A DNA stretch of 64,000 nt from the NCBI GenBank assembly GCA_040954595.2, contig CM082590.2, positions 5,084,001-5,148,000 of the forward strand, in the 5' to 3' direction. Of this stretch, positions 3,001 through 30,621 are shown in pieces. How positions within the stretch are numbered: position 1 is the first letter of the stretch; each line of letters begins with the position of its first letter. The translations under genes and the position numbers were made by a program. Origin of the DNA: Balanoglossus misakiensis (taxonomy: Eukaryota > Animalia > Hemichordata). Under the pieces are notes generated by a model. It saw only the letters and a program-made list of their open reading frames with translations. It was not told the DNA's origin and searched no databases.

Positions 3001-3495
3001 TGATTGAGTGTGCATTCCAGGTGGATATTTTCACTTGGCAGGAATTATTCATGAGCAAGTTATTTGTTGCTTCTATCAATGGAAGATTTGAGAAGTTGAT
3101 TCCCTTTTTTTCTTTGGTCTTTTTCCCGCCAGGTCTACCCCTCTTACGTCTTTTATGAATTTTGAGTTCCTTCAAAAGCCTTACTTGTTCTGGTTGTAGA
3201 TATGTTCGGTTTTTCCGTAGATCCAATTACTCAAATCTAGACCATTGTATTCTCTCACCGGGAATACGTTCCTTCTGCTGCTCAGCCACCATGATTTTCA
3301 TTTCATTTCCTTTACATCTTCGTTCCAGTTCAATACCACAAACTTGGACCATTAAATACAAGAATATTATCAACCGCATATTCATAGTACCTTGAGTCTG
3401 GAAATGGTACCTGGTAGCCGTTGTTTAAAGCAAAAATCCAAGGAAATTGTTCACGTTGTGTTGTATGTTGCTCTCATGCGGCGCCATTACATCAT
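1..3495 (-). mobile_element. CR1/L2-group LINE, near full-length ORF2 (APE endonuclease + RT), frameshifted; 3' tip just outside the window
   Basis: ORF 2294..3226 has APE motifs (TWNAHS, ITETWL, GVYRPP, GDFNIH, LDLII, SDH). 1819..2376 is the linker. 198..1880 has RT motifs (NYRPVSNL, DLSAAFDTVDH, VPQGS, YADD, KYLG) and the L2-like tail FADRAFSVQGPKRWNGLP. There are two frameshifts and a stop near 3227. The 5' end abuts the tandem unit at ~3500. Confidence 0.93.
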
Positions 3496-3896
3496 TTTTA
3501 TGATTTATGATACGCGCGTGTGTTGTTTTCATTTGAAGATGCCCTCTGTACAATACCTCAAACTGACAATGATATAAATGTTATAAAAGCCTAGACATCA
3601 GTTTAATTACCCCTTAAAAGAGCATTGGAATTAGCCAATCGAAGAACATCAATTATGAATCAAAGTTAAGAAATATGCGGAACCAATATTGACATTCAAA
3701 TGATTATGGTGGACTTCAGCAAGACAACTTTTTTTAGTCTCGCCAGCCAGACCTCTCTCTCTGTCATTCGACGGCATAGCCACACGAATTGCGCCACAAA
3801 CAGCGAGGCCGGGAGAATTGAGCGCCAAAGACGGCCTCGCCGCTTGTGGCGCACTTCGTGTGCGTGGTCGCGCGTCGACGGATAGCGAGGTCTGGC

Positions 3897-5957: not shown

Positions 5958-6447
5958 GTCTGGTCAGCGAGTAGTCTCGGTTACCCAGAGCCCTCTGCTT
6001 CTTCCGTTGGGCTCTCCAGAAAGAGGGTCTGGTGAAATACCAAAGACAAATCGATGGCCGACTTGAGACAAAAGGCGATGCCAAAGCCGTCCAGAAATAT
6101 CATGCAAGGGGTGGAGGGAACAGCGTTCAGCCGTCTCGATGGACTCTTGCACGCTCAAATGACGGATGCAACGTACCGAGTGTGTTGAAAACTGCATCTG
6201 TTCGCTCTGAACCTTTTGCGCAACCAAAGTCATCTAATTAATGCATCGGTACACAAAAACATACGACACAACCCAACACAGAACTCAGCACTCGGCATGA
6301 ACTGAAATCAGCAAATGCTTCAGCGAAGCCAGAGTTATGACCGTATGTACATGTATACCTATGTTCAGAAATGTGTGTTATTGATAATAAAACGTGTCAA
6401 CTGATGTGTGAGTGTAGAATAGAATTACTGTGATTACAGTAACTTAC

Positions 6448-6546
6448 TTTATCCTGCACATCGACGCTGGCATTGGATTGCAGTAGAAGTCTCACCAGGT
6501 CACCATGGCCATTCCGTGCTGCATGGTGTAACGGTGCCCAACCACC
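6448..6546 (-). CDS. Ankyrin-repeat gene, coding exon 6 (99 nt, phase 0-0): GGWAPLHHAARNGHGDLVRLLLQSNASVDVQDK
   Basis: ttgtattgccacag| acceptor and |gtaagt donor; 33 open codons matching the ankyrin consensus G-x-T/A-P-L-H-x-A-A-x-x-G-H. Confidence 0.92.
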
Positions 6547-9500
6547 CTGTGGCAATACAACAAAAAGGTGTCACTGAAAATCCCTGACTATAAGCGTAAA
6601 ATGGAACACGCAATGTTTCATAAAGCATGCAGTGTGAGACACATTCTGAACATTCATTTTTTGAGATGGCACAACATGCTTTGCCGAAACTTTGTTGTTG
6701 TTGTTGTTGTTGTTGTTTTGGGGGGATAAATTAATAGTAGGATACATCCCAGTCCCCCACGTAATGGACAAAAATGGATGATGTGGTGATATGGCTCTGT
6801 CCTTTGAGGGTACATTAACATCACAGCAATTCTTTTACTTGAGATTTATGATACGCGCGTGTGTTGTTTTCATTTGAAGATTCCCTCAGTACAATACCTC
6901 AAACTGACAATGATCTAAATATTATAAAAGCCTAGACAGCAGTTTCATTACCCCTTAAAAGAGCATTGGAATTAGCCAATCAAAGAACGCCAATTATGAA
7001 TCAAAGGTAAAAAATATGCGGAACCACTATTGACATTCAAATGATTATGGTGGACTTCAGCCAGACAACTTTTTTTAGTCTCGCCAGCCAGACCTCTCTC
7101 TCTGTCTCATTCGACGGCATTGCCACACGAAGTGCGCCACGAGCAGCGAGGCCGGGAGAATTGAGCGTCGAAGACGGCCTTCGCCGCTTGAGGCGCACTT
7201 CATGTGCCTGGTCGCGCCGTCGACGGAAAGCGATGTTTGGCCAGGGAGAAGAACATTTCTTTAGACTGAGTCAGTTTTGTAATGGTTCAGATGACAGTTT
7301 ATGAAGGAATCCAACTTTGTATCAGGGTTAAACGTTTACTTTCAATTTTAACAGCATGTGCTGAGTTGTCTGCTATCATCGTTATTACGTATCAGAAAAA
7401 TAGTGCAATTACGTGTAGTTTTGTAAGAACATCTAAATTCCCGCCGTGAGAGAGATGTGTCTGAGGGTTTGTTTACCTGCGAATTCATCAAAATGTTTTT
7501 TGGGTGTACATTCGGTTAATCTGATTTCCCGCGCTCTGTTGACGCATAAGCCTCACAAAAATTTTGCTATGTTTTATTCTCTTTTGTTCTAGTGAGTTTG
7601 AGACAATTTCTCTGTTATTCTTTGGTGAACCAGTGGTCTTCTTGGTGCTTGCCCATACGCGTTGTACTGTTGTTTATGTAGCAATTAGAGATGTAACTAG
7701 TCAAAACGGATTATGCTATACAAAGAATAGAACATATATTTCCATGGATAACGACCTAGTTATGTTTAATCTCTTCCATTGTGTTTGAAATATGTTTAAT
7801 GTTTCAACAACAGAGTTAAACCATGTTAGAGGAATTATCAGTTCGGACTTCATTGCTGAAAACCTAGTCTTTCTCAAACAGTAGGAATTATGCAGCACCT
7901 GATATGTGGGCGCAGAAGTCTTGATGGGTGAAACGTTTGAGGGATCTCAGCAAATATGGCATTCTATCAGAGACTGAATTTCTTTTTGGTTGGACGTTTT
8001 TTTTTTCTATTAACCCGCTGATGTACCTCAGCTTCCAAGTCGCCCAAAATGGTTGGGTTTGGTATGTAAAGTCGTTGTGTCCGTGTCAATTGAAATATCC
8101 AGAAATATCATGCAAGGGGTGAAGGAAACAGCGTTCAGCCGTCTCCATGGACTCTTGCACGCTCAAATGACGGATGCAACGCACCGAGTGTGTTGAAAGC
8201 TGCATCTGCTGGCTCTGAACCTTTAGCGCAACCAAAGTCATCTAAGTAATTAATGCATCGGTACACACAAACATACGACACAACCCAACACAGAACTCAG
8301 CACTCAACTGAACTGAAAGCAGCAAATGCTTCAGCGAAGCCAGAGTTATGACCGTATCTACATGTATACTCTTACACATCTGAATGTCAAGTTTGCATTG
8401 GTTTTCCGGCCGCCAAGCTGAAAGTTTTTGTTTCAGGGTTTTGACAAATATCTTTGGAGTAGGCAAGTGACAGGCAAAATCAGGAAACAGATAATGTCTC
8501 ATGACACGCGGCGACGGTGTGATTTTCAACATTACCTACACAGTCATAAATGGCGACAACAAGTAATGGGAAGGTATTTATAATAAAATTAGACATGACC
8601 ACAGCAACACGTGGCAAAGGCAAGCCAAATTCTAACAGGAACATTGCGATCGTACTGTTGAACTTGTAGGGCTTCCCAACAGCCAGTAATCTGGACTTAA
8701 TATCAACTGAAGACATAGCTGTGGAAACGCAGCTGTTCTGCTGGGGGGGGGGGAGAGATGCGGGGAATTAGTATATCCCCCCTTGGTGGAACAGCTGCAT
8801 TTCCACACTCAAAAACTCCGATTTTCAGAAATTTAATTCCACTTTGCTCGTGCAACGGAAGATCCAGAACGTGTTTTGCTTTCCAAAAATCTACGCTGGA
8901 CGCCCATTTGTGTAATACGCCCTTTACGGTAACAATAAACTGTACCCCGAAACGCCTAAACTAGATGATTTCATGTCTTCGTACCAACACAGAGAAATAA
9001 ACTGTCAGGTTTAATCCCCCTGAAATTTTTCCTTGCCTCAATGCAAAGTACAGAATGATTTTTCAAGACATTGACCAACCGCGGTATGGCAAGTGTCCAC
9101 GGCTGTTTACCCAACCTCGCGAAACTTTTTATAGGCTTATATTGAGCATTTGTGAACAGAGAAACAGTTAGGCGTAGGTCACACTATACATCGATATACT
9201 CGTGTCATCAATGGCGCGCGCGATTCAAGCGCCTGTACCACCTGTTGCAGTCGTCTCTACAACAAGCTGACTGACTAAATATACTTGGAATCGGACAACA
9301 GTGTGATAAGGTTTATCAGCGGAATCTAACCGACGTGCCAAGCTCAATGCAATGCAGGTCCGGGTTAATGCAGATTTGAGTCTTAGCAAGGCTGGCTTCT
9401 CTAGCTTGAGTGGTCGTCTAGTCGAGCGCTCTGCATGGATGATACACGTCCTCCTATACCAGCAAAATCCCCACTGCAGTCTACGCTACAGTGGGCTGCC

Positions 9501-10073
9501 TGGTTCATTAAAAAAATAATTCTAAAAACCGAATTTCAGGGATTTGTGAGCAATTTTTTTCCAACAAACAATGCACACAAGCGCAGCGCCACGAGAGCTT
9601 CCGTTTGAAGTTTTATAACTAGTTTGTATGATTTTATAATGTGGGACGGCATGCAGGCTATATATTTATTGATCATTACTGGAATAGAGGATTTCTTTCA
9701 TGCTGTTATCAGTAAGAGGGGTTCTCGTACATTGGTCCTATATTGCGATACACACAAACATTTACCTATAAATCTGCTGAACTTGATCTCACATTCAACA
9801 AAATCAACAACACTTCCTGCTCTGAATGATTGATTTCTTTTTGAAATCATCACAATTTGTGCCTTTGAAGAAAAAAATACATTGAAATATTAAATGTTGA
9901 AACAATCCATAATTTAACAAGGTTGTAAAGTCTGAGTCGTTGGGAACATGGCAGAGGGATAGTCGTCAACTATTTTATATTGACCTCAGTTCAAAAATGT
10001 GTGAGATTGATAATAAACCGTGTCAACTGATGTGTGAGTGTAGAATAGAATTTGTGTGATTACACTAACTTAC

Positions 10074-10172
10074 TTTATCCTGCACATCGACGCTGGCATT
10101 GGATTGCAGTAGAAGTCTCACCACGTCACCATGGCCATTCAATGCTGCATAGTGTAACGGTGCCCGACCATG
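10074..10172 (-). CDS. Ankyrin-repeat gene, coding exon 5 (99 nt, phase 0-0): HGRAPLHYAALNGHGDVVRLLLQSNASVDVQDK
   Basis: ttgtattcccacag| acceptor, |gtaagt donor, one full ankyrin repeat. Confidence 0.92.
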
Positions 10173-13007
10173 CTGTGGGAATACAACAAAAATGTGTCAC
10201 TGAAAATCCCTGATTATAAGCGTAAAATGGAACACACAATGGTTCATTAAGCATGCAGTGTTACACACTTTCTGAAACATTCATTTTTGAGATGGCACAA
10301 CATGTTTTGCCGAAACTTTTTTGGGGCGGGGGGGGGGGGGATAAATTGATAGTAGGATACATCCCAGTCCCCCAGTAATGGACATGAATGCATGATGAGG
10401 TGTTAGGGCAGTGTACTTTGAGGGTACATTGACATCACAGGTGTTCTTTTACTTGAGATTTATGATATGCACGTCTGTTATTTTCATTTGAAGATACCCT
10501 CTGTACAATACCTCCAACTGACAATGATCTAAATATTATAAAAGCCCAGACAGCAGTTTCATACCCCTTAAAAATGCATTGGAATTAGCCAATCGAAGAA
10601 AATCAATTATGAATCAAAGCTAAGAAATATGCGGAACCAATATTGACATTCAAATGATTATGGTAGACTTCAGCCAGACAACATTTTTTAGTCTCGCCAG
10701 CCAGACCTCTCTCTGTCATTCGATGGCATAGCCACACGAAGTGCGCCACGAGCGGTGAAGCCACAAGAATCGAGCATCGGAGACAACGTCGCCGCTTGTG
10801 GCGCCCTTTGTGTGTCTGGCCGCTACGTCGACGGGTGGCGAGGTCTGTCAGGCGAGTAGTCTCGGTTATCCAGAGCCCTCTGCTTCTTCCGTTGGGCACT
10901 GCAAACAGAATGTCTGGGGAAATACCATAGACAAATCCGCGCCGGGCAAAGATGGCCGACTTGAGACAAAAAGCGATGCAGAAGCGGTCCAGGAATATCA
11001 TGCAAGGGGTGAAGGGAACAGCATTCAGCCGTCTCGATAGACTCTTGCACGCTCAAATGACGGATGCAACGCACCGAGTGTGTTGAAAACTGCATCTGCT
11101 CGTTCTGAACCTTTAGCCCAACCAAAGTCATCTAAGTAATTAATGCATCGGTACACACAAACATACGACACAACCCAACACAGAACTCAGCACTCGGCAT
11201 GAACTGAAAGCAGCAAATGCTCGGGCGAAGCCAGAGTTATGACCGTATGTACATGTAGACTCATACACATCTGAATGTCAAGTTTGCATTGGCTTTTTTG
11301 GCTGCCAAACAGAAAGTTTGTTTCAGGGTTTTGACAAATATCTTTGGAGTAGGCAAGTGACAGGCGCGCATCAGGAAACAAATTATATCTCGTGAAACGC
11401 GGGGACAGTGGGATATTCACCATTACTTACACAGTCATCAACTTCGATAACATGTGGTGGGAAAGTATTTAAAATAAAATTAGACGTGACCATAGCAACA
11501 CGTGACAAAAGGCGAGCCAAGTTCTGACAGGAACATTGTGATCGTTCTGTTGAACTTGTAGGGCTTCCCAACAGCCAGCAATCTGGACTTATCAACTGAA
11601 GACATAGCTGTGGAAACGCAGCTGTTCTGCCGGGAGGGGGAGAGAGATGCGGGGAATTAGTATATCCCCTCCCCCGGTGGAACAGCTGCATTTCCACAGC
11701 TACTGAAGATCCGAAAAAGTTTTTTAATTCCACTTTGCTCGTGCAACGGAAGATCCGGAACGTGTTTTGCTTTCCAAAAATCTACACTGGACGCCCATTT
11801 GTGTAACACGCCCTTTACGGTAACAATAAACTTTACCAGGAAACGCCTACACTAGATGATTTCATGTCTTCGTACAAACACAGAGAAATAAACTGTCAGG
11901 TTTAATCCCCCTGAAATTTTTCCGTGCCTCAATGCAAAGTACAGACTATTTTTTCAAGACATCGACCTACCGTGTTATGGCAAGTGTCCACGGCTGTTTA
12001 GCCAACATCGCGAAACTTTTTATAGGCTTATATTGAGCATTTGTGAACAGAGAAACAGTTAGGCGTAGGTCACACTATACATCGATATACTCATGTCATC
12101 AATGGCGCGCGCGATTCAAGCGCCTGTACCACCTGTTGCAGTCGTCTCTACAACAAGCTGACTGACTAAATATACTTGGAATCGGACAACAGTGTGATAA
12201 GGTTTATCAGCGGAATCTAACCGATGCGCCAAGCTCAATGCAATGCAGGTCCGGGTTAATGCAGATTTGAGTCTTAGCAAGGCTGGCTTCTCTAGCTTGA
12301 GTGGTCGTCGCGTCGAGCGCTCTGCATGGATGATACACGTCCTCCTATACCAGCGCAAACCCCACTGCACTCGCTACGACCTAGTATGATGTTTAGATGC
12401 TGTCATGCCCAGTCTACGCTACAATGGGCTGTTTCCTTCATTCAAAAACTAATTCTAAAAATAGAATTTCAGGGATTTGTGGGCAATTTTTTTCCATAAA
12501 ACAATGCACACAAGCGCAACGCGACGAGAGCTTCCGTTTGAAGTTTTATAACCAGTGTGTACAATTTAATGTGGGGTGGCAGGCTATATATTGATTGATC
12601 ATTACTGGAATAGAGGATTTCTTTCATGCTGTTATCTATAAGAGGGGTTCTCGTTTATTGGTCCTATATTATAATACACACTAATATTTACATATAAATC
12701 TGCTGAACTTGATCTCTCATTCAACAAAACAAACAAATTAATTTCTCTTTTTAAATCATGACAAACTGTGCTTTTAAAGAAAAAAAACATTGAAATATTA
12801 ATTTTTTTAAGAATCCATAATTAACAAGACAGGCTGTCATTGGTAATATTATATTGTAACGTCTGGGTTGTTGGGAATAAGACAGAGGAATAGACGTTAA
12901 TTATTTATTTTTATTTACCTATGTTCAAAAATCTGTTATATTGATAATGAAACGTGTCAACTGATGTATGAGTGTAGAATAGAATTAGTGTCATTACAGT
13001 AACTTAC

Positions 13008-13100
13008 ATTATCCTTCACATCGACGCTGGCATTGGATTGCAGTAGAAGTCTCACAATGTCACCATGGCCATTTGCATTGTGTAACGGTGCCCAACCATT
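13008..13100 (-). CDS. Ankyrin-repeat gene, coding exon 4 (93 nt, phase 0-0, in-frame 6-nt deletion): NGWAPLHNA--NGHGDIVRLLLQSNASVDVKDN
   Basis: ttgtattccctcag| acceptor and |gtaagt donor; paralog of the 99-nt exons lacking two codons. Confidence 0.85.
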
Positions 13101-15062
13101 CTGAGGGAATACAACAAAAATGTGTCACTGAAAATCCCTGACTATAACCGTCTAAGGGAACACACAGTACGGTATTTCATTAAACATGCACTGTAACACA
13201 CATTCTGAAACATTCATTTTGAGATGGCACAACATGTTTTGCCGACACTTTTTTTTTCTTTTTTTTTTTGGGGGGGGGGGATAAATTTATAGTAGGATAC
13301 ATCCCAGTCGTCCACGTAATGGACATGAATGCATGATGTGATGATAGGGCATTGTACTTTGAGGGTACATTGACATCACAGGTATTCTTTTACTTGAGAT
13401 TTATGATACACGCGTGTGTTGTTTTCATTTGAAGATATTCTCTGTACAATACCTCAAACTGACAATGATCTAAATATTATAAAAGCCTAGACAGCAGTTT
13501 CATTACCCCTTAAAAGAGCTTTTGCATTAGCCAATCAAAGAACACCAATTATGAATGAAAGGTAAGAAATATGCGGAACCACTATTGACATTCAAATGAT
13601 TATGGTGGACTTCAGCCAGACAACTTTTTTTAGTCTCGCCAGCCAGACCTCTCTCTCTGTCATTAAACGGCATAGCCACACGAAGTGCGCCACGAGCGGT
13701 GAAGCCACAAGAATCGAGCATCGGAGATAACGTCGCCGCTTGTGACGCACTTCTTGGCCTGGCCGCGACGTCGACGGATTGTGAGGACTGGCAGGCGAGT
13801 AGTCTCGGTTATCCAGAGCCCTCTGCTTCTTCCGTTGGGCACTCCAGAAATAGGGTTTGGGGAAATACCATAGACAAATCGATGGCCGACTTGAGACAAA
13901 AGGCGATGCAGAAGCGGTCCAGAAATATCATGCAAGGGGTGGAGGGAACAGCGTTCAGCCGTCTCCATGGACTCTTGCACGCTCAAATGACGGATGCAAT
14001 GCACTGAGTGTGTTGAAAGCTGCATCTGCTGGCTCTGAACCTTTAGCCCAACCAAAGTCATCTAAGTAATTAATGCATCGGTACACACAAACATACGACA
14101 CAACCCAACACAGAACTCAGCACTCGGCATGAACTGAAAGCAGCAAATGCTCCAGCGAAGCCAGAGTTATGACCGTATGTACATGTAGACTCATACACAT
14201 CTGAATGTCAAGTTTGCATTGGCTTTTTGGCTGCCAAACAGAAAGTTTGTTTCAGGGTTTTGACAAATATCTTTGGAGTAGGCAAGTGACAGGCGCGCAT
14301 CAGGAAACACATTATATCTCATGAAACGCGGGGACAGTGGGATTTTCACCATTACCTACACAGTCATCAACTTTGATAACATGTGGTGGGAAAGTATATA
14401 AAATAAAATTAGACGTGACCATAGCAACACGTGACAAAAGGCGAGCCAAGTTCTGACAGGAACATTGCGATCGTTCTGTTGAACTTGTAGGGCTTCCCAA
14501 CAGCCAGCAATCTGGACTTATCAACTGAAGACATACAGCTGTGGAAACGCAGCTGTTCTGCCGGGAGGGGGAGAGAGAGATGCGGGGAATTAGTATATCC
14601 CCTCCCCCCGGTGGAACAGCTGCATTTCCACAGCTACTGAAGATCCGAAAAAGTGTTTTAATTCCACTTTGCTCGTGCAACGGAAGATCCGGAACGTGTT
14701 TTGCTTTCCAAAAATCTACGCTGGACGCCCATTTGTGTAATACGCCCTTTACGGTAATAATAAACTTTACCCGGAAACGCCTACACTAGATGATTTCATG
14801 TCTTCGTACCAACACAGAGAAATAAACTGTCAGGTTTAATCCCCCTGAAATTTTTCCTTGCCTCAATGCAAAGTACAGAATAATTTTTCAAGACATAAAC
14901 CTACCGTGTTATGGCAAGTGTCCACGGCTGTTTAGCCAACATCACGAAACTTATTATAGGCTTATATGAGCATTTGTGAACAGATAAACAGTTAGGCGTG
15001 GGTCACACTATATATGGCTCACTCGATATACTCAAAAGTGAATTCGTTCGTCTAAAAATATA

Positions 15063-17140
15063 TGTAACCCGGTTTACAAAATAAACCATGTGATAGTCAT
15101 GTGATATACTGTCCCAAGGGAGGATCATTTCCCTCCAAATAGGGTCACGTGATAAAAGTTTCAGTCACGTAATGACTTTTCCTATATAAAACAATGTGAG
15201 ACCGTCAAGTTTTAGCCCGCTGATGGTTAACACTTCTGTGGATAAAGTGTTTGAAATTTGCAGCGTTTCTTGTTAGGGAATGGCCCAGAGACGGTGTGGT
15301 TGGTCTTTCGAACAGTTTTATTTGAAACCTACAGGTACGTTAACTCATTCTTTGTGATGCAGAATCGAGCATCTCTCTCTCGCTGCCCTTTTCTTATTAA
15401 TTTTGTTTGATACAAGACACAGTTTACGTTAATGTACATGTGGATATACAGTGAATCAAAGTTCAACCACACACAACTTCCATCCGGTTTGTAGCATATG
15501 CGATTAAAAATCCAGCCCAAATGAAAAAATGGTAAACACTGATTATTCATTTTGGCGAGTTTTTCACTTTCGTGTCTACAAGTGGGATGGAAGTTGTGTG
15601 TGGTCGTATGTTGAATCACTATATATCCACATGTAGAATAACATAAACATTGTCTTGTATCAAACAAAATTATTGGAAAAAGGGCAGCGAGAGAGACTTT
15701 GTCCCTTTAAATGTTAAATGACTTGTAAGGTCAAAGCATTGTTATTGCTGTGGAGTGCCTTTGTCCTTTGCCGTGTTCGGAGCATATTTGAGAAAACAAC
15801 CTCGTGGTTTCAGTACCGTAGTTAGTATTGCGGCCGGACTAGGTTATTACCAGAATTTTAGAAAGAAAGTTTGAAGTTGTAGTTTGTTTACAGTGTTTAT
15901 ATTTGACCTTCAGTAAACAATCGGTGGCTTATGTAACGCCATTTTAGTTTTATCTTTGAACCACAGGCGCTTGTATAGATGCTATTTCAGTTTTCTATTA
16001 ATTGTAAAGTGACTAAAAACGATAAATCAGTTGCTTAGACGATCTCCCGAATTTGCGTCAAACGAGCGCTCTCGCTATGTTCGGGCCTAGGCCTATACCC
16101 CACTGACACATAAAGAGATTAAAGGTAGGAAAGCTCTCGCTGGTCACATTTCTGAAATCGACAAAATAAAGTGGTTGCTGGCAATTCCAGAGTCTCAAAC
16201 TTAACACCAAGCATTCACAGTGCTCACAAAATCGATCGACGCCTTTCTTTTACCTAACTCACCCAATCGATCCCTTAAAATGCGGAAAAAATCGCTATCT
16301 CTCTGTCCAGACAAACTCAGCTTGCCCAACCATTTTGAAAGGTCATTCACCTAGAAACTTGCGCAGGCGCATACATTCTGTCATAACCATGGCGTCATTT
16401 TAGAAACTTTAAAACGCCTGTGAAATCAAGGCGCATTTTGGAAAATGTATTAAAAATAGATTTCTCGAAGGTCACTAGAAATGCATGTTACGTGACCACT
16501 GTATAAAAAAGGTGGTTGGGCACAGTGACTGCGTGTACTTGTTCCATATGTAGTATGCGCATGTACACGTTTCTAAGTGAATGACCCATCATCTTTGTTT
16601 ACAAAATGAGATGTCTTTCGAACTAGTTTTATTTGAAACCTACAGAACTGTGCTGAGTGTTGAATTCGGAACTGTGGATTGTATACTATTGCAAGCCCGA
16701 GTGGGAAGCCCTAGATGCGTGCGTGTGTATAGGAAAATACCCGTTGCCGTGTGTGGAGGGATACTCGTCTGCAACGTAGATCGTGACAACACAGGCCAGG
16801 ACTCGCCGGTTGCCAGGGACCGATTTACGATGTTGACACAGCCAGATCCGTATCATCGCTTATTCGCGGTTTAGCAGAACAGCTAAGTTGAATAGACTGT
16901 AGGGTTTCTGTTTTGATGAACACTGGACTTATTTGGACTAGTGGATTTCTATGCCGGTCATTTATTCAGTGTTTCGATCATTGTAAAGCGACCCATATTT
17001 CTGTTAGATAGTTCTCTAGTTATCATAGCAATAAAATAGCAATACTGTTGACTGCTAACAATTTGTGCGATATCTGTTCTTGTTGTTGACCTTGAATGTT
17101 GACTTGTGTTGTGAATAACCAAATCAAACTCTGGGTTACA
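15063..17140. mobile_element. TG...CA element (solo-LTR-like, or Ginger-like) with nested insertions
   Basis: TGTAACCC...GGGTTACA inverted termini flanked by a perfect 4-bp TATA duplication; TATA-like CTATATAAAA at ~15183; no coding capacity. Confidence 0.6.
15371..15706. mobile_element. Kolobok-like MITE (family also at 30088-30401 and 61640-61920)
   Basis: Right end GAGACTTTGTCCCT|TTAA; the copy at 61640 starts TTAA|AGGGACAAAGTCTC; internal sequence is shared among the three copies. Confidence 0.65.
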
Positions 17141-17352
17141 TATATAAGAATTCCACATAGCCACGGACCAAAAACTAACCTCAAACTCTTTCATACTCTG
17201 CATAATATTAGTATATATGTGTGTCGGTTTATTGCAGTAACACTAGTTTCGTGATTGACATCCCGAATGTCGTCAACACTACAAAATATAAGTACAGTGT
17301 CACCTTTTTGGCCGTTTGGGCTTTTGGTGAGTGAGCATGTAAAGCCACTTAC

Positions 17353-17451
17353 CGCATCTTTAGCATTGACGTCAGCTCCATGGTCGATCAACACTTGTGC
17401 CACTTCCAGTTTATTTTCCCTGGCTGCAGCATGCAATGCTGTGGATTCATC
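17353..17451 (-). CDS. Ankyrin-repeat gene, coding exon 3 (99 nt, phase 0-0): DESTALHAAARENKLEVAQVLIDHGADVNAKDA
   Basis: tttaag| acceptor and |gtaagt donor; canonical TALH..A...GADVNAKD ankyrin repeat. Confidence 0.93.
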
Positions 17452-17787
17452 CTTAAATTGACAAATTCATTTGAATTAAAATAAACACAAGCTATGTTCC
17501 AATGTTGGACTTGTAAGGTGACATGGCTATAATTTCACTGGAATCGAATTGTAACTATAAGTGTTGACTGATATTATGAGTTAAATGTGTGTAGCATATA
17601 TAGTTGTTTCAGACCAAAACACACTATTGTTTCAGAGAACATTTATAACGTGTCCTATAGATTTTTCTAACAAGTGTAACACTATTAAATTCTAATATAA
17701 TGTAGCGCACTATACATGTTTATGCACACTCATAGGTGCAACAGGTCTTAATATCATTTCATAAATTACATTGATATGTTGAAATTT

Positions 17788-18190
17788 CCAATCACACCAA
17801 GTACTCTAACAGATAAACATTGCAGACGTGATACACCAGACACATACAATCCCTCGTGTTTCTCTGTTGATGTAAGTTGAAGTCTGGCCCGCTATGAACC
17901 CAACATTGGCATGGGACATCTTGAAATTTTCAATCACACTAAGTACTCTAACAGATAAACATGGCGGATATGATACACCAGACACATACAATCCTCGTGT
18001 TTCTCTGTTGATGTAAGTTTAGGCCAAGCCCTCTATGAACCCAACATTGGCATGGGACATCTTGAAATTTTCAATCTCACCAAGTACTCTAACAGATAAA
18101 CATGGCGGACGTGATACACCCGACACACACAATCCCGTTTCTCTGTTGATGTAAGTTAATATTTAGGTATAGCCTGCTATGAGCCCAACG
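17788..18190. repeat. ~140-bp tandem repeat, about 3 copies
   Basis: CAATC(A/T)CAC(C/T)AAGTACTCTAACAGATAAACAT recurs at ~17789, 17932 and 18072. Confidence 0.85.
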
Positions 18191-18562
18191 TTGGTACGTA
18201 CGGTACATCAATGTTATAATTATTTAATGTTGCCAGAAAACACCAGAAAAAGAATTGTCTAAACCAGTCTGGACATTTCTCTCAAATGTGTCTTTTTTTT
18301 AAAAAGCGTTTGTAGTATCCATTGAATGGAAGTGAAATTACCTATGTTTTTTTTTTAATTTTAAACTCTAAACGTTCACCGAATTTAACAAAAAACACAG
18401 AAGGAAAATTGTGGTCACGCAAATAAGTGTGAAAGTGGAGTTCAGTAAACAAATTGAATTCGCCCTTCTAATAAACATAAGAAAGTTCCTTGTTGAATTT
18501 ATGTGACCAATCTGATTAAAATCAGATGTAGAGTTAGGCGTTGTCTTTACCCGTGGTGATCA

Positions 18563-18611
18563 TTTTTAGCTCACGTGAAAATCACGTGAGCTTATGGTTT
18601 AGCGATGTCTG

Positions 18612-18652
<41 letters not shown>

Positions 18653-20690
18653 GTGTGTGTGTCTGTCTGTCTGTATACCCGATATCTCAAGAACCGCTGA
18701 ACCGATTTCAACCAAATTTAGTACACAGGTTCATATATCATATGACAAGAACTGAAAAGGTTTTGGTGGGTGTGGCTTTGATATTAATGAAGTTATTAAA
18801 GTTTTAATTTTTCTATTACATGGTTGTCTATGAGAGCTTTCGTTAATGCCGCATATATAACCAGTGGAAACGATAGTTTGAGGAGATCGACTGTTTGAGG
18901 GCGCTGTGAAATGAGACATTCCTGGCGATATTGCCGTGGTTCTGTCCATGCTCAGACGCTGTACCCGTCGTTACGAATAACTTCCCTACGTGAATCCACA
19001 AGGAAGCTAACGTTGTTTAGTTGCTTCATAGAGCTTAAATTGTTAATCTACAGGACCGTCAGACGAATACTCTTTTCAAATGAAGATTGAAACTACTTAC
19101 GAGTAAGTTAGTGGAGACAATATGGCGGATAGTTGGCGTGCAGCCGAATCCGCGTTATGACTATGACGTGACCCATTCATCAAGACAAACCGTAAATGAT
19201 TCACGCATATTGTGGTCCTCACGCAGTCAATCTCAAAATGTCACCAGGCTTTCTATTTGTCTATTGTTCAGAGAAAAATAACATGGTGGTTGATCACACT
19301 CAACAGTAAAATCCGTTTTGTGTGTTTATACTATTATAGACAGTCTGTTATCGCCAATACTATATAGCGATTGCTAGATGGCCTACCCAATATGTGATCG
19401 AGCGAGAATGATAACATTGAATGTCTGTTCAGATCTCATTCCGTACGTCATACGTCAACATTTCGATTTCGATTTAATCCATTCATAAAGAATTTAGAGA
19501 AAGTCGTCTTGAATTGTGACCCTGACTATCAATTTTACGATGATTTTTTGGCGACGGAATACACGAGACGCCATTGCATAACTACGTCAGCTGGACTTCC
19601 AAGGTTACCATTTTGTGTGTATGGAATCTTATCACAGAGACTACGTACTTTGACAATATGCCATGCTATATCAATGACGCCCCAGAAAATTTGTCGAAAA
19701 ATGAATTTGTCTTCTCATGGTGGTGCAATATATTTTAATGTCTATTTTGAGGTTGATTTTGGTTTTTGGCTTACATGTATATCAATGTCAGCTTATAGCA
19801 TAAGTTGGTGTCCGTCGTCTATGTATGTCTGTATGTGTGCCTCATACAAAATTATGTATTTTGTGAATGGATCAGTTTCGTCTAAATGTATTGTATGTAT
19901 GTGTATGTCCATCAACATCAAAAACTTGAAACTACTGATATTTAGTGTGTACATAGAAATTGTTATTGCAAAAAAATGCATACTGGTATTGACTGGAAAA
20001 ATGTTCAAATAGTCAAAATTGAAAAACTTAATAACAGCGGATCAGATTCAGTTAAAAATTGGCGTGCATTGGTGTGCAAGTACTTTGGGAAGACCTCGTA
20101 TGATTTTGTTCAGGTGGAGTCAGTATCTGGCGTTTGCTATTTTTTATGAATTTTTTGGGGAATTTTCTGCAGTTTTGTTAAAAAAAATTCTTCTCTGAAA
20201 TTACATGTCCAATTGATTGGAAACTTGGTATGGAGGTTCATAGGGCTTACCTGAATCACATTTGTGCAAACGGTGGTGAAATTTGCAAAAATGCATTTTT
20301 TGGCAATATTTCCTGTTTTTGTCAAAAAATCAAATCCTGTGAAACTGTAAGTGCAATTGTTTTGATACTTTGTATTTGGGTTTCTAGGGGTGATCTCAGT
20401 CAGATATGATCAAATTGTAAAGAAATTTGCATAATTGTATTTTTGGGAATTTCTGCAGGGTTTGGCCAAATAGTCTTCAGTAAAACCACAAGTCCAATTG
20501 ATTGGAAACTTTGAATGGGAATTCATATATGTGATATCAGTCAGATTTGTCTGAATTACCTGTTGTTTGCCAAAATGTCTTCCTTATTGAATTTTGTTCA
20601 AGAGGCATGAACAGAAATCAGATTTGTTGAAATCTGGTGAAATATTCATACTTTTTGGTATATTTCTTGCCATTTTTGATCAAAGAGTTT
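18563..20690 (+). mobile_element. Non-autonomous Helentron-type (HINE/DINE-1-like) element; right boundary approximate
   Basis: 5' TTTTTAGCTCACGTG..CACGTGAGCTT inverted repeat, then a (TG)n/(TGTA)n/(TGTC)n microsatellite and degenerate internal tandem repeats at ~20140-20660. Confidence 0.65.
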
Positions 20691-21993
20691 TAGAATTCCA
20701 TAGACTTATCTTTTTATGCAGTTCAGGATGGGATACATGACTCATAACCCCTTACAAAAATTGACAAGGCAACAATTCCACAAACATGTTTACATTTCAC
20801 AATGGTGCAACACACAACCCTTACACCATATACACTATAAACCAAAATGGTTTAACACTGGTTTTTCTAATCTTGTTATTCTGTCAACCAATCACAGTAC
20901 TGCACGTGAGCATATTCAGTTAATATCTGGTGGCTGTTCTGTTCTCTGTCTTGGCCGTTCTCGGGTGAACGGTCCCTTTCCGAACAGAAAAGCCAAGAAT
21001 CAGCAATAGTAAAGACACCGCCTAATTCCACATCCGATTTAATCAGATAGTTTTGTGACAATCAGAGACGGTCCCTAAGCTTACAATGGCACATAATGCA
21101 TGGGGCAAATGCAATCACTAGCTTCCTCCACAAATAAAGATTTCGTCCAAATGGCAACTCTCCAGCCTGCAATGACACAGATTCCACATATTCTTCGGGT
21201 GTCCGCAAATGAAACATTTCAGCCTGGCCTTGTCACGACTCTGATATTCTCCCTGTATTCCCCATAGACAAGCACTATGTCCTTACTCTGGCATTGTTCT
21301 ATGTCCATCGAGGTACAATAACATGTTCATCTCCACACATGTGTGTTTACTCAATCAAGTAATTTCTACATGTAACAAATCCATCGAATAGCCAGAAAAA
21401 ATAAATAGTACAATCAATCAACAGCTGCCCCACCTCAAAGATTGAAATCACGCCTGAAGAATACACTTGTAATACAAACACCACAGACTAAAGAAATCCG
21501 CACTTTTTGTTTATAAGGGCAATCAACGGCACTCTTTTCCATGATCATATTCACCTGAATTCCGGATTGGCTTACGACACAGGATTTTTAATCTATATTG
21601 TGTTGCTTTTGGGGTTTCAATTATTTGTAAACACTTTCATGTTTTATGACATTTGCAAACATCGATCTGGATTTGTCAATAACCTCGCCATAGACTGTTA
21701 TTGATCACAATATACGGATACCTGGACATTTCATTCAACACTATGTTCTTATTCGTTTGGGTTTCAAATTTCTCTTTCTAACCTCAAATTGCTATAAGAG
21801 AAACAAAGGAGGAAACAAGCTTTATTTCCTGACAAGTTTTCTATTTCAAATGCATTAAGCTTGTATATGAAACACAGGAAAGTTTTGTGTTCATCAATAA
21901 AGTCAAGGTCAAAACTGTTGTCGCTTCAGATTCGTTACCTGTGTGACTTTGTTGTACGTGTGAAATGTTGAGTGAGGCAGTGTAAATACTTAC

Positions 21994-22092
21994 CCAGCCA
22001 GAGTATACACCCTTTGCATTGACATCGTACCCATCAGCTATCAACGACTGAATCCTTGCAACATCACCATCCCCAGTGGCTTTAATGAGATC
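21994..22092 (-). CDS. Ankyrin-repeat gene, coding exon 2 (99 nt, phase 0-0), N-cap-like repeat: DLIKATGDGDVARIQSLIADGYDVNAKGVYSGW
   Basis: gttatag| acceptor and |gtaagt donor; L..A...GD...I..LI..G.DVNAK pattern. Confidence 0.9.
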
Positions 22093-22274
22093 CTATAACA
22101 TTCAGTGAAACATACAATTGTTATTTTTTAAATATTCCGTTAAAAATAAAATTCTTCAGTATTTGAACTGATCTTCGATAATGAATAAACAAAATCACAA
22201 ACACCAAGAAAGTGCACTGTTACATCACATTGTATAAACATTTTGCATCGATGATATGGTAACCCTTACGGAAA

Positions 22275-23482
22275 AAAAATAGCGTCAAGGACACTGTGGT
22301 CCCATTTGAGGATTATGCGGAAACAGTGACACACCAGAATATGAGATATGATCGTAGGATATAGAAATATGGAATGTAACAAAATTAACAAGGAACATGC
22401 CCAATAAACTGTCAAATTGCAAAGCAATCTGGCATGTGGTTTTAAAGAAAAAATATAGCTGCAAGCAGCAATAGCGGGCCCAAGCCAACATAGAACATAG
22501 CAACATAGCAAAAAGCATATCTGCTCTGGATGCCAAGATATGGAAAAGTAGGTCAAAGGTCACCTGAGGTCATGCAAAATTTGGGCAAGAAATGTTGACC
22601 CTATACTGGTCCATGTTCAACAAAAACCAAACCTATAGCCCTATTGGTTAGCCTGGAATTAGGTATGCACATAATTAATGAGATATGCAGGTGTCACAGG
22701 TGACCCATAATCTGGCTTCATAATTTTAGTCCCTACCCTCCAAACGCCAAGTCTGTACCTGCTCTGGATGCCGAGATATAGGAAAGTAGGTCAAAGGTCA
22801 CCTGAGGTCACCTAAAATTTGGGCAAAATTTTTTGATCCCATACTGGTCCATGTTCCACAAGAACGAAACCTCTAGCCCTATTAGTTAGCCCGGAATTAG
22901 GTATGCACATAATTAATGTGTTAAGCAGGTGTTAAAGGTGAGCTCAAAAATTCGCCTTTTATTTTGGCCGCATTGTGCTTACTTACCAATAGACAGTCAC
23001 TGTACAGGACTATTGCACAGACCAGAATTCCACAATAAGACGTGGACATAGCTTAACCATAGAGGTATAAGTAAAGGTATAAATTTAATAAAAAGACTAA
23101 AAAATTCATAAAAAATAAATGATATTAACTTAACACTTACAGGTCGATGTGAGGTTGACATAAGGTACATGCATACCAATTTTTAAAGCAATCTGACCAG
23201 TAGTTGTTGACTTTCAGAGTTTTGATAAATTTCACATTTTACGGGCTAATTTGCATATTTTTGGGCCTGGCAACTTCGTTTGAACAAACTCCCATCTACA
23301 GCCCAGCCTGCACCTACACACCAAATATTGAGGTGATACGCACAGCGGTTTTCAAGTTTTTGATGTGGACGGACATACAGACATACATACATCCATCCAT
23401 ACATACATACATACATACATACAGACGCAACCGATCCCATAAGGTCCCATGGTATATAGGCCTATACCAATGGGACCTAAAA
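22275..23482 (-). mobile_element. Second Helentron-type non-autonomous element; left boundary approximate
   Basis: The minus strand begins TTTTAGGTCCCAT...ATGGGACCTTAT followed by (TATG)n; internal ~240-bp tandem duplication at 22520-22940. Confidence 0.6.
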
Positions 23483-24437
23483 AGGGCCTGTTCCAAACTC
23501 CTCCCGCAAATCTGCAGCAGGATTCTGCAAACTCACTGCAAACTGTTGCTGCAAAGTGGCAAACAGTCCTGATTTTACCATGCAAATTAGGGGACTTGCA
23601 AATTTGCTGCAAACTTCCAGCAACAAGATTTTGAATACTGCAGTGAGTTCACAGCAATTTGAATACTGCAGTGAGTTCACAGCAATCAAGATTGCCACCT
23701 TGGAAATTTGAACATTGCAGGGAGTTTGCAGCAAAGCCAATTAACTAGGGGTACCATTGAACCCCCCCCCCCCCACACACACACAAACAAACACACTTTT
23801 TCTCTGCTTGAAAATAAATGAAGCAACATTAGATAAAAGGTTATTTTTACATCTTAAAAAACTTCCCACCTACACTATTGACGAAGGTGGTGCTCATGAT
23901 TTAAGATAGTTATTTTGTTTACAATTGCTTTAAGAATTTCCAATTAATGTTGATTTTGCAATGACAAAGCCTTTGCTTCAGACTCAGTGTACATTCCAGA
24001 TGTAGCACGATTGAGAAATTGCAGTTTTTACCATGAAATATCGTACCTCTACGAAAAACAACTGTCAAATAAATTATCATTGGCCATTCAATGCACATAC
24101 AAAGACGACCAGCTTCTATATTTAAACACGTTCACTCATGATTTAAACACAAGAAATGAATGCTTAGACACATGGCGATATCCTTGTAATAATGTCAGGA
24201 CGTTTATTAATAAATCAATCCCGGTTAAAGAATGCAAACATAGTTCATTTCGTTGCAATATCCAACAGTACAGACAACAAGTAACAGTAAATTTGCCTGG
24301 TGTTTAAAACTAAATGCGAGATGGTCATGAACGGAACTGAACTGACTCGCCGGCGCCCATTACAGCAACAATGAACAGTATGCCGTATGGACGGACGCGA
24401 CTGACAACATGCAGCAAAGTCTAGCTAAAAGATTTAC

Positions 24438-24650
24438 CTATCTTTTAACGATCAATTCATCAAAACGGCATCATCGCTGATGGTATAAAATCGCCCTTTC
24501 CGAATGGATGAGGATGATAAACATGTCTGACGAACACTGGGACCGCGACATAATCCTTAGAAGTGTTTACAACAAGAAAACCGTTAAAATATGGCGGGTG
24601 TACCTCGCGCATGCGCACAACGCTATTTTCGTGTCATAACCGGAAATACA
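24438..24650 (-). promoter_or_regulatory. Candidate intronic promoter and non-coding first exon
   Basis: YY1-like AAAATATGGCGG (~24586), NRF1 GCGCATGCGC (~24607) and ETS CCGGAA (~24640) cluster together, with a minus-strand AG|GTAAAT donor at ~24437. Confidence 0.4.
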
Positions 24651-24815
24651 GCTCAGAGCTATAATAGTGATCGACTGTGAGTTAGGATCGACTGACTATA
24701 TTTATAAAAGAAAAATATTGATGTAGGATTTGAGTAACCATGAAATATACTCATTTTTTGGGGGGAAAAGTATGCTTTATTAAATGTAGGGATCTTGTAC
24801 ACTATGCATGGGACC

Positions 24816-24875
24816 TAGCCTGGCCCCAGACCAGTGTTTAGAATTTATAAAACACACTGGTCTGGGGCCAGGCTA
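24816..24875. mobile_element. 60-bp hairpin mini-element, TAG...CTA ends, 9-bp TSD (Academ-like)
   Basis: TAGCCTGGCCCCAGACCAGTGT...ACACTGGTCTGGGGCCAGGCTA flanked by CATGGGACC on both sides. Confidence 0.85.
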
Positions 24876-26881
24876 CATGGGACCATGTACACTATGTATA
24901 CGGCATGGAACCAAAGTTTTTTTAGAACCTGCAGTCCTCAACTTTCAGCGTTTTGCAAGTTTGTTTAACACTTGTGGCAAGTGTGTATTATACAAGCTTG
25001 TCTGGGGCGGTTCACAAGCTGTATTCAAGCTTGTAATTTTAAGCCGTAATCTTATCCAAGCTTGTAAAACCTTTATACAAGCTAAAAGCTAGCATTTCAA
25101 AGTTGTGTCATCCTTGCAGCAAGCTTGTACAAGGTTGTGACATCTTGGTGACTTTCGTAACTAATCCACAAGTTCAATTTGAATAGTTATAAATATCAAA
25201 TAATTTGCTGGTCTATCCTGGAATCAGAGCCAAAAATCTAACCTGGTCAACATTTAATTTGTAAAAAACTACTATCCAATGTGCTTGTTTTGCTCACCCC
25301 TCATTGTCAGCAATGGTAGATTACATTTGCTGAATGTGTGGCTGGAGACCATAGGACAGCATAGCCATGTACCCGGTACTAACACTGGGCCCAGACAATC
25401 TCTTTGTACAGTGTAGTTGTGACCTTTAATCTATAGATTGCTTGCTTCATTCTGACCATTAACAAGTTGCAGTGACTTCACAGCAACAGTTTTTATTTGC
25501 TGTAAATTCACTGCACAAGTTTGATTTGCTGTGAATTCTCTGCACAACATGTTTGGGGATTGTTCACTTTGCATTGAGTTTGCAGAATCTTGCAAACTTC
25601 TGCAAACCCTCTTATCAGCCAATCTGCAAACTATATGCCTGCTGGGTATTGGCAGCAAACTCATAACCATCTCCCAGCAAAAATATTTTTTCGTAAGGGA
25701 AAGTATTCTAATTACACATAAACGTACACGGCTTACACCAAAATATAGATACATGTACTGGAAAATGCCCGGATGAGCCCATGGACTCATGATAAGGCAA
25801 CGGTCTCAAGAGAACGGTGAAGAAATGAAATGAGAGTATCACTGTGAATGTTTGTCCAAACTGTGAGGGCAAGTTATTGTGTAGCTGTAGTAGTGTGTGG
25901 GTCGTGCGACAGCTTTGTATACCTGGTCGCTGATGTGCTTCCCAAGAAGCATTTTTGACAGTTTGAAAGGGTTTGCATGATTTCCATAAAAGATTCACTG
26001 TCCAGCCACTCTATTGTTATAGTCTACAGATTAGGGATGTCGTCCTGTTGGTCAGAACATGGAATCCACAACCGACGGTCAGCAATGAACGTCACAGCAC
26101 GGCTGTCACAACACGGCCAAACGGATAACACTTGTTTCCGTTGGGATCATCCACAAAGTCACGGTTGACGTAGACAAGCTGCTTTCTATCGGTTAGAATG
26201 TCTCACTTTTTTAGTAGTTAACCGTATGCGCATAGGGACTGGTCAGTTTCTTCGGCCGGGGGTGGATTCTATTTTGTGCACCCTCGGTCATCAAAATACA
26301 CTGTTGCCCTCATTGTCAGTCATCATGTGTATACTGCCCCATATATAGACACATTGCTAGACATGGTTACAAAGTAACACAGACATGGATTTCAATGGGT
26401 GTTTTATCTAAAGCTAGAACTTGCTCATAAAATTGTGTTTACTTAGGACTTGCTCAACCGGTAAAATTATTTTTGAAATATCGTTCAATGGAGACTTTGA
26501 CTTGTGAATTGAAAACATTGTGATAAGTGTGACTATTTTGTCAACTAGGTAATTGTTTGATTATGAATGCACTATCTAGCAATACACACAGACACTAGAA
26601 GTTTCTATGTTTTCCGTGTGTCGGGCAAGCTGACCCGTTGAAAAATGATAAACCTATTAGGCACCAACTAGCGCCACAAGTCTTAACGAAACAGTCATTT
26701 GTTTAGTGACCAAAATGTCTGGTTAAATTTACGTGCATGGGGTTGACGGGAGAAATTTTGAACAACAGTCCTCAGTCCACAAAACAAACAAAATATAAAC
26801 CACTCATAAAAACAGTCGTCGTACGCGTCACTGCCAGACATCGTTGCCTTTGGTGTGAAATGTTAGTTGTTACAGTTAACA

Positions 26882-26960
26882 TAGCTCTGCGTGGCAGGGC
26901 TGTGTTGTTACGGCGAGCCCACGGGTCGCCGTAACAACACAGCCCTGCCACGCAGAGCTA
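26882..26960. mobile_element. 79-bp hairpin mini-element, TAG...CTA ends, 9-bp TSD (Academ-like)
   Basis: Perfect 35-bp arms around a 9-nt loop, flanked by CAGTTAACA on both sides. Confidence 0.88.
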
Positions 26961-26979
26961 CAGTTAACAGTTCACTTAC

Positions 26980-27009
26980 CTGTGGATCCTTATATTCTCC
27001 AGAAGCCAT
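26980..27009 (-). CDS. Ankyrin-repeat gene, first coding exon: MASGEYKDPQ
   Basis: Strong Kozak context AACC-ATG-G, 10 codons and CAG|GTAAGT donor in phase 0, matching exon 2; YY1-like motif ~100 bp upstream. Confidence 0.75.
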
Positions 27010-30493: not shown

Positions 30494-30621
30494 CTTGAAA
30501 TTGTTGGCTGCCTGTTTCAATCCAACATCAGTATCCAAGAATTGAACTTCAGCAATTTGGCTGTGAAGTGCAGCCATAATGAACAAGACACAGGCCTTCT
30601 CAAAAGAGGATGATGTCATAC
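30494..30621 (-). pseudogene. PDCD6IP: Isolated ALIX/PDCD6IP Bro1-domain exon (128 nt, phase 1-0): MTSSSFEKACVLFIMAALHSQIAEVQFLDTDVGLKQAANNFK
   Basis: gttttgtatag| acceptor and |gtgtgt donor; the peptide matches the recalled ALIX motif YEKSCVLFNCAALASQIAAEQNLDNDEGLKIAAKHYQ; no other ALIX exon was found. Confidence 0.8.

Follow-up and report, generated by a model that had tools for sequence, protein, structure and literature searches.

A spliced ankyrin gene family with one-repeat exons and variation concentrated on the putative binding face

Six exons on the minus strand of the 64,000-nucleotide stretch of DNA analysed here (the window) are predicted to form the beginning of one gene: one with the ATG, one resembling an N-cap, a single ordinary ankyrin exon, and three phase-0 ankyrin exons that are nearly identical to one another. 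In the account that we consider probable, the gene is spliced, probably belongs to an animal and carries phase-0 exons of one repeat each that have been copied along with their introns; the codons of its predicted binding face outpace those introns, a pattern that would reflect selection for new binding in a probably immune cytosolic sensor.

Layout of the predicted gene and its tandem units

Table 1. Predicted exons, duplicated units and insertions in the window
Feature	Coordinates	Strand	Remarks
E1, predicted start of the coding region (10 codons with the ATG, donor in phase 0)	26980..27009	-	ACCATGG context; CAG|GTAAGT donor
E2, 99-nt exon, N-cap-like ankyrin repeat	21994..22092	-	AG/GTAAGT, phase 0
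E3, 99-nt exon, first full ankyrin repeat, outside the duplicated units	17353..17451	-	Pfam Ank 41.1 bits
E4, 93-nt variable ankyrin exon lacking two codons of helix 1 (frame kept)	13008..13100	-	
E5, variable ankyrin exon, 99 nt	10074..10172	-	
E6, 99-nt variable ankyrin exon, the one against which sample contigs were compared	6448..6546	-	
Tandem duplication with E5, E4 and their introns	8098..15034	.	8098-12093 matches 10988-15034, 89% over 4104 nt
E6 unit, exon-bearing part	6356..7239	.	87-88% to 9983-10847 and 12916-13778
Fourth unit, start only (5954-6358 and 3502-3898)	3502..6358	.	interrupted at 3896-5958 by a 2-kb insert that has inverted ends
Dead, frameshifted LINE in the intron after E6, ~3.5 kb	198..3500	-	endonuclease and reverse transcriptase spread over three frames

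All six exons are open and have intact splice sites, although the use of E1 is a prediction, as it is not covered by the sample contigs described below. E4, E5 and E6 are bordered by AG and GTAAGT with phase 0 on both sides, and E3 to E6 all pass the Pfam Ank profile (PF00023; 39.9, 41.3 and 31.4 bits for E6, E5 and E4 against a cut-off of 21.1). Over 33 columns, E5 and E4 are 85% and 84% identical to E6. E2 had no match in the Pfam profile search, and its best stretches in the PDB, with a top E of 1e-7, all come from the N-terminal repeats of designed ankyrin proteins. Neither tblastn nor motif scans found a further ankyrin or C-cap exon in the window, and the gene continues past its left end.

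The predicted N terminus lacks a signal peptide, a feature more in keeping with a cytosolic sensor than with an allorecognition receptor at the cell surface. No exons or open reading frames for a STAND ATPase, a NACHT or an effector domain were seen upstream of E2 within the window. If E1 is the true first exon, the gene departs from the effector-NACHT-ankyrin layout of NLRs, because the ankyrin stack then begins about 10 residues after the predicted ATG.

The window holds three exon-bearing duplicated units of 2.9-3.6 kb, spaced by 2934 and 3626 nt, and in the E6 unit the exon-bearing part is followed by an extra stretch (~7240-8097). Judging from this spacing, the exon of the fourth unit would lie about 0.3 kb past the LINE, outside the window. 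The open reading frames of the LINE (2294-3226, 1819-2379 and 198-1883) match Pfam Exo_endo_phos and RVT_1, and its 3' tail reaches base 1. Transposons crowd the region, stray gene fragments lie upstream of the array, and TTAGGG-like repeats and long GT-AG introns were also seen in the window; it is these repeats and introns, together with the kinds of transposon, that suggest an animal source.

An earlier note on this DNA had described E4, E5 and E6 as phase-0 ankyrin exons, one to each ~3-kb unit, and as symmetric exons duplicated in tandem. The three exons lie where it placed them, on the minus strand, with AG/GTAAGT borders and above the Pfam cut-off, and the unit alignments bear out the tandem duplication, which takes in the introns as well. 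The rule of one exon per unit holds for three units, but not for E2 and E3, which lie outside the duplicated units, nor for the fourth unit, which is broken before its exon.

Variation at the putative binding face

Between E6 and E5, 7 nucleotides differ in 5 codons (GGT/CAT, TGG/CGG, CAT/TAT, CGG/TTG and CTG/GTG), every one of them residue-changing, and E4 adds N, N, I, K and N plus a 6-nt in-frame deletion; the changes fall on ankyrin positions 2, 3, 5, 10, 13, 19 and 33, all as the earlier note had recorded and numbered them. Taking positions 2, 3, 5, 10, 13, 14 and 33 as surface codons, a surface exposure suggested by homology to solved ankyrin proteins, the comparison of E4, E5 and E6 gave changes in 10 of 21 surface columns, 3 of 78 framework columns and 92 of 614 columns of the flanking introns. 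On these three copies only, the surface exceeds the intron rate (P 0.002) and the framework falls below it (P 0.009); the surface rate is about three times that of the introns, with pairwise P values of 0.035, 0.024 and 0.008 that are not independent. As the whole-exon pN/pS of the two full copies, E5 and E6 (0.088/0.020), comes from about 25 synonymous sites and is too thin to serve as proof, it is the site pattern and the comparison with introns that carry the case for selection.

A much larger set of copies came from three runs (X1, X2 and X3) of one public sample, from one study and of the same or a very close species, in which 140, 62 and 8 contigs, respectively, cover the E6-type exon and which contains dozens of further exon variants. 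Contig depth, about 70 on the LINE in X1, runs to thousands on exons and upstream introns, a hint of tens of copies, but depth is no measure of copy number and is left out of the evidence. We analysed 40 listed alleles of 47; these are single letters on short contigs rather than phased exons, which rules out a tree-based dN/dS, and they are not independent events. The intron flanks of the sample contigs were dropped as a control, since known differences in the outermost ~30 bases at either end of the stretch are missing there.

Half of the listed alleles (20/40) lie on positions 2, 3, 5, 13, 14 and 33 (P 0.002), the set that Binz et al. in 2003 reportedly randomised in the original DARPins. 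Positions 2, 3, 5, 10, 13 and 14, which parts of PMC3308923 give as the set randomised in a designed ankyrin library, hold 24/40 against 7.3 expected (codon permutation P 7e-5), and the same six-position test confined to the 5' half of the exon gave P 4e-4. Position 14 is invariant in the window copies yet variable in the sample. Among the alleles listed, residue-changing ones make up 23 of the 48 possible at surface codons, compared with 5 of 63 for silent framework alleles (Fisher P 2e-6, rising to 0.002 if all 7 unlisted alleles are silent), while residue-changing framework alleles number 10 of 167 and are mostly conservative (L/V/M, V/I). Silent alleles overall account for 7/40 listed against 26% expected, a depletion that is not significant (P 0.16); the framework silent sites are less variable than the introns and may be a lowered neutral yardstick. 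Again among the alleles listed, codons 8, 11 and 12 carry 5 to 7 alternative letters each, in contrast to their neighbours: 5 and 6 have none, and at 7 and 9 there is a single silent allele apiece.

That exons of this family are used is indicated by X3, which is recorded as 'DNA?' and behaves as RNA: it covers the exon, has zero depth in both intron flanks and contains exact joins. One contig runs from the 3' end of E3 (where 29/30 letters match 17355-17384) straight into the beginning of an E6-type exon, and another joins two E6-type exons with a 99-nt period, each join being on one contig at a depth of about 3-11. Two contigs continue into further ankyrin-type exons absent from the window, and a C-cap-like exon follows the variable exons, with 30 of the ~170 letters past the last variable exon visible. 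Two different downstream exons follow E6-type exons, which the contigs cannot assign to paralogues or isoforms. Splicing of the family's transcripts is thus supported; as the X3 contigs differ from the window exons, this is evidence for the family and not for this locus.

The earlier note had proposed diversifying selection on a recognition surface, as expected of a candidate innate-immune or allorecognition receptor, to be abandoned if the exons proved unspliced or if, with more copies, the substitutions were spread evenly with dN/dS <= 1. Neither outcome was seen: with copies now far beyond three, the sample alleles pile up on the binding-face codons, exact exon-exon joins occur in the family, and the selection that the note proposed is well supported. 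We infer selection as the cause of this pattern, in preference to explanations that do without it. One holds that this is an ordinary ankyrin gene with tandem duplication, a conserved framework and a surface that merely drifts, and it draws on the established fact that ankyrin domains as a rule vary most at their surface, on the non-significant depletion of silent alleles over the whole exon and on an intron control of three copies only. Drift would, however, cap the surface at the intron rate, which it exceeds about threefold, and would not set highly variable codons 8, 11 and 12 beside the near-invariant 5, 6, 7 and 9, so that we regard this account as very doubtful. Mutational hot spots through CpG decay, or patchy gene conversion, seem more improbable still: codon 11 (CGG) is a CpG, as is codon 3 in E5, and silent sites hardly vary across the 3' half of the exon, which suggests conversion tracts, but codons 3, 8, 11 and 12 show many transversions, E6 has no CpG at codons 1, 8 and 12, the CpGs in the framework (codons 5 and 27-29) have a single allele between them, and a conversion tract cannot pass over individual codons that alternate with invariant ones.

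Other explanations accept the gene family and differ on its partner or on the state of this copy. The same diversifying selection could come from a non-microbial arms race, with a fast-evolving selfish element, a transposon protein, a drive, a toxin-antidote partner or a gamete protein. A signature of selection leaves the partner's identity undecided, transposons are dense in the region and no signalling domain was seen in the window; against this, no result points to germline or gamete expression, and the known near-identical-repeat systems with hypervariable faces are, in parts of PMC4986451 and PMC13449251, sensors of non-self, and we judge such a partner rather unlikely. It is likewise unlikely, if less so, that the copy in the window is a decaying pseudogene or null allele of a real family. 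E4 lacks two helix-1 residues, the intron after E6 has taken up both the 3.5-kb LINE and the 2-kb insert, stray gene fragments lie upstream and the X3 contigs are not identical to the window exons; yet six exons are open with intact splice sites, the framework is more conserved than the introns (P 0.009), and intronic insertions need not block splicing. Decay of this one copy would be compatible with the account that we favour for the family at large.

Relatives and comparable systems

No close protein relative was found; the best of 341 proteins compared has 21/33 identities. Searches of protein databases returned generic ankyrin proteins only, or nothing; the best 150 matches in a search of representative proteins are long many-repeat proteins at 36-56% identity, an Atlas search gave generic ankyrin clusters only, and an exact 30-base exon pattern had 0 matches in metagenome contigs. 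Introns between repeats are common in vertebrate ankyrin genes, and one repeat per exon is therefore not new in itself. A literature search, with subscription journals and supplements outside its scope so that absence from print is not established, found no animal array of hypervariable one-repeat ankyrin exons.

Fungal NLRs with high-internal-conservation (HIC) ankyrin repeats, such as Podospora anserina Pa_3_8560, as described in parts of PMC4986451 (Dyrka et al. 2014) and PMC13449251 (Ament-Velasquez and Saupe 2026), share near-identical repeats (84-85% here), a hypervariable inner helix and hairpin loop, and an association with transposons. Within-gene repeat identity here reaches the level of about 85% used for HIC repeat sensors of the fungal HNWD/ANK type; the three repeats total 97 residues, just under the 100-residue rule of PMC4986451, with more repeats outside the window, and the hypervariable, positively selected binding-face sites are found by count tests against introns and silent sites rather than by a codon model. 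In contrast to the fungal genes, each repeat here is its own exon, duplicated with a 3-kb intron, and the stack appears to sit at the N terminus, preceded by neither a NACHT nor an effector domain. The host, too, is probably different, namely an animal, and HIC repeats are rare in animals (0.8% of repeats, according to PMC4986451).

The brown-algal ROCO (LRR) and NB-ARC-TPR genes, in sections of PMC3341825 (Zambounis et al. 2012) and PMC11378527 (Teng et al. 2024), also encode one repeat per symmetric exon, grow in exon number by duplication, have positively selected sites on the concave face and are proposed immune receptors. The array shares with them one repeat per same-phase, tandemly duplicated exon, but its exons are ankyrin, phase 0 and 99 nt, whereas those sections describe 72-nt phase-2 LRR or 126-nt TPR exons; no inverted spare exons were seen in this window, and the part of the gene inside the window shows no ROC-COR or NB-ARC. 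The Tuber melanosporum nank (NACHT-ankyrin) family (Iotti et al. 2012, cited in PMC4986451) is likewise an expanded ankyrin family diversified through exon structure, although a passage of PMC4986451 attributes this to codon-sized microexons and alternative splicing rather than whole-repeat exons. The top PDB matches of the array are DARPins, which with related libraries (PMC3308923 and PMC8683736, in part) combine an N-cap, near-identical internal repeats varied at positions 2, 3, 5, 10, 13, 14 (33) and a C-cap-like repeat. In contrast to these, the array is natural and germline-encoded, may continue into signalling domains and is a putative binder.

A possible source of receptor diversity

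The predicted protein would consist of a 10-residue leader, the N-cap (E2), E3 as a fixed repeat, interchangeable repeats whose number varies (E4, E5, E6 and more), a C-cap-like repeat and a remainder. Unequal crossing-over between 3-kb units could add, remove or swap whole repeats while keeping the frame, gene conversion could keep the framework alike, and selection would hold diversity at positions 3, 5, 10, 13 and 14, and less so at 2 and 33. The array possibly has an immune role. Near-identical repeats with hypervariable binding faces are the hallmark of fungal non-self sensors and candidate algal immune receptors. A bolder version, which we put forward tentatively as unlikely, is an invertebrate multigene family of free-standing natural DARPins, in which short cytosolic proteins made of an N-cap, interchangeable exon-encoded repeats and a C-cap, with faces diversified by selection and recombined through exon duplication, exchange and skipping, would form an antibody-like intracellular repertoire that differs between individuals.

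With its known variable codons, the array is a compact and testable system. Its variation at the same positions that engineers chose for DARPin libraries would make it a test case from nature for the ankyrin positions on which evolution builds specificity, and an animal ankyrin version of such sensors with one repeat per swappable exon, if true, would give invertebrate immunity a new way to diversify its receptors.

The ankyrin exons and their surroundings

The three ankyrin exons that an earlier note had read from the sequence (E4–E6, the variable exons) lie on the minus strand at the positions it described, each preceded by AG and followed by GTAAGT, in phase 0 on both sides and above the Pfam ankyrin cut-off. 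Its account of their differences is confirmed: between the full copies E5 and E6 there are 7 base differences, spread over 5 codons that are all residue-changing, E4 has five additional changes and an in-frame two-codon loss, and the varied residues occupy ankyrin positions 2, 3, 5, 10, 13, 19 and 33. Its tandem units of about 3 kb, one exon each, are likewise present (spacings 2934 and 3626 bases); they share 87-89% identity including the intron, and the proposed growth of symmetric exons by tandem duplication is borne out by one-repeat phase-0 exons copied together with their introns. In each, use of an in-frame, donor-like GTGAGA at the codon 17/18 boundary would remove half a repeat.

Features of the locus and its flanks
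Feature	Position	Strand	Remarks
E6	6448-6546	-	variable ankyrin exon
E5	10074-10172	-	variable ankyrin exon
E4	13008-13100	-	variable ankyrin exon
Internal GTGAGA	6496, 10122, 13056	-	one per variable exon
Near-invariant 3' half	6454-6497	-	part of E6
E3	17353-17451	-	further ankyrin exon, upstream of the variable ones; Pfam 41.1 bits; phase 0
E2	21994-22092	-	best PDB stretches, first repeats of designed ankyrin proteins; phase 0
E1	26980-27009	-	predicted 10-codon ATG exon; phase 0
Open stretch after AG	27010-27048	-	in frame with E1
Isolated single exon	30494-30619	-	splice sites
Isolated single exon	31564-31620	-	splice sites
Decayed mobile elements	44833-47052	+	
	54483-55700	-	
	56633-59161	-	
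	59426-60252	-	
Degenerate TTAGGG/CCCTAA repeats	35317-35352, 48510-49122		
355-nt tandem repeat	38556-39972		4 copies, 98%

E2, for which a Pfam search gave no match, is read as a putative N-cap. The E1 leader contains no signal peptide, and given the in-frame AG 39 bases 5' of its ATG, E1 might double as an internal exon. Downstream of E6 a fourth unit starts, interrupted first by an insert of 2 kb with inverted ends, further on by a frameshifted LINE reaching base 1; its exon would be expected about 0.3 kb past the LINE, outside the window. In X1, one of three public sequencing runs of one sample (X1–X3), contig depth on the introns around E2 and E3 (15000-22300) is 10-60x that on the LINE, a hint, depth being an unreliable copy number, that the whole gene is multicopy, beyond the variable exon alone.

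One of the two isolated exons just upstream, on the same strand as the array, encodes part of an ALIX-like BRO1 domain (Pfam E 2.6e-10), the other part of a tRNase Z (E 1.6e-5, below cut-off). The housekeeping genes they represent are unrelated to each other, and both exons have the look of gene fragments that were captured or duplicated. The BRO1 exon has a phase-0 end, and splicing to E2 is possible in principle. By eye, the decayed-element ORFs look like pieces of tyrosine recombinases (Crypton/DIRS-like) and LTR integrases, with no Pfam match in those scanned.

Variation on the binding face

Ankyrin surfaces always vary more than scaffolds, and the neutral rate is therefore the required yardstick. 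Across the three copies, we compared seven positions from published randomised sets (2, 3, 5, 10, 13, 14 and 33) with the other 26 codons and the aligned intron flanks. Changed columns numbered 10/21, 3/78 and 92/614, respectively; relative to the introns, the surface changes faster (P 0.002) and the framework more slowly (P 0.009). Whole-exon pN/pS was 0.088/0.020, with silent sites too few for independent weight.

Runs X1–X3, found in one study, have word shares of 0.37, 0.34 and 0.00, and none is recorded as RNA. On long contigs, fixed differences of about 2% from the window point to a second individual, either conspecific or from a very closely related species. At 80% likeness, 140, 62 and 8 contigs, respectively, match E6; position 6525 carries a non-reference letter in 30 contigs of X1, and the sample thus holds dozens of exon versions, be they paralogues, alleles or pooled individuals.

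Of 47 alternative letters against E6, we analysed 40, which are single letters, neither phased codons nor independent events; one of them would give a stop, a reading explained by its probable pairing with a second change. Among these 40 the alleles pile up on codons 11 (7 alleles), 8 (5), 12 (5) and 3 (4), which correspond to ankyrin positions 13, 10, 14 and 5, and position 14, constant in the window, is hypervariable here. The original DARPin set, reportedly positions 2, 3, 5, 13, 14 and 33 (Binz et al. 2003), takes 20 of the 40 (P 0.002). The set of PMC3308923, where 2, 3, 5, 10, 13 and 14 are randomised as binding surface and 26 and 33 kept constant, takes 24 (expected 7.3; codon permutation P 7e-5), and 23/34 in the 5' half alone (P 4e-4).

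Within the same 40, residue-changing alleles fill 23/48 possibilities on surface codons, against 5/63 for silent alleles in the framework (P 2e-6; were the remaining 7 all silent, P 0.002), a comparison in which intron flanks provide no control; framework residue-changing alleles fill 10/167. Silent alleles make up 7/40, a scarcity that is not significant (P 0.16). In the window and X1–X3 alike, the exon's 3' half shows almost no variation, silent sites included, and less than the introns do, which would fit a conversion tract or a splicing constraint; with these silent sites nearly frozen, conversion may lower the silent-site yardstick. The concentration of variation on the binding surface, first noted from three exons, thus extends to further copies.

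Splicing of the exon family

Depth on both intron flanks is zero in X3 and in the thousands in X1 and X2. One X3 contig joins an E6-type exon start directly to sequence like the end of E3 (29/30 letters); another passes from one E6-type exon into a second, repeating after 91 + 8 = 99 bases, without any intron sequence between them. A further two continue in frame beyond the exon end, by hand translation into GKTPLDVA, a C-cap-like motif, and GDTPIHL, another ankyrin start, neither present in the window. Because of this exon-only depth and these joins, and with no exon-exon joints listed for X1 or X2, we read X3 as RNA, though it is not recorded as such. The joins, on single contigs at low depth, show splicing as predicted at the level of the ankyrin exon family rather than of the window's particular allele, bearing out the splicing into mRNA on which the earlier note had staked its reading.

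Mechanism and relation to known systems

Beside what is directly established (symmetric exons of one repeat each, copied along with their introns; an all but fixed scaffold; a surface that outpaces the introns; and spliced transcripts of the family), a mechanism can be proposed: unequal crossing-over would change repeat number in frame, conversion would homogenise the scaffold, and selection for recognising a partner that keeps changing would maintain diversity on the binding face.

Fungal NLRs carry ankyrin repeats that are almost identical to one another and have five positively selected sites, most of them located in the inner helix and the hairpin loop; among metazoan repeats, this near-identical type accounts for 0.8% (PMC4986451). 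Exchange of the fungal repeats between genes is documented in PMC13449251. In brown algae, ROCO and NB-ARC genes devote a separate exon to each LRR or TPR, and their concave faces are under selection (PMC3341825, PMC11378527). The array unites the repeat type of the former with the exon layout of the latter. It would work like both, but we claim membership of neither: no ATPase precedes the repeats within the window, and any ROC-COR C-terminal to them would lie past the window's left end. Protein database searches found no close relative, and our limited literature coverage no animal one-repeat-per-exon hypervariable ankyrin array.

That a hypervariable ankyrin exon array exists here is well supported. 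Diversifying selection on its predicted recognition surface, as the earlier note had it, is probable, and we hold it with considerable confidence, given a surface above the intron rate and X1–X3 alleles on binding-face positions. As to what drives it, the main alternative to microbes or viruses pits the protein against selfish elements or gamete proteins; by analogy with the fungal and algal systems, we take, with moderate confidence, a partner of microbial or viral origin as the most likely, for which the protein would serve as a cytosolic sensor.
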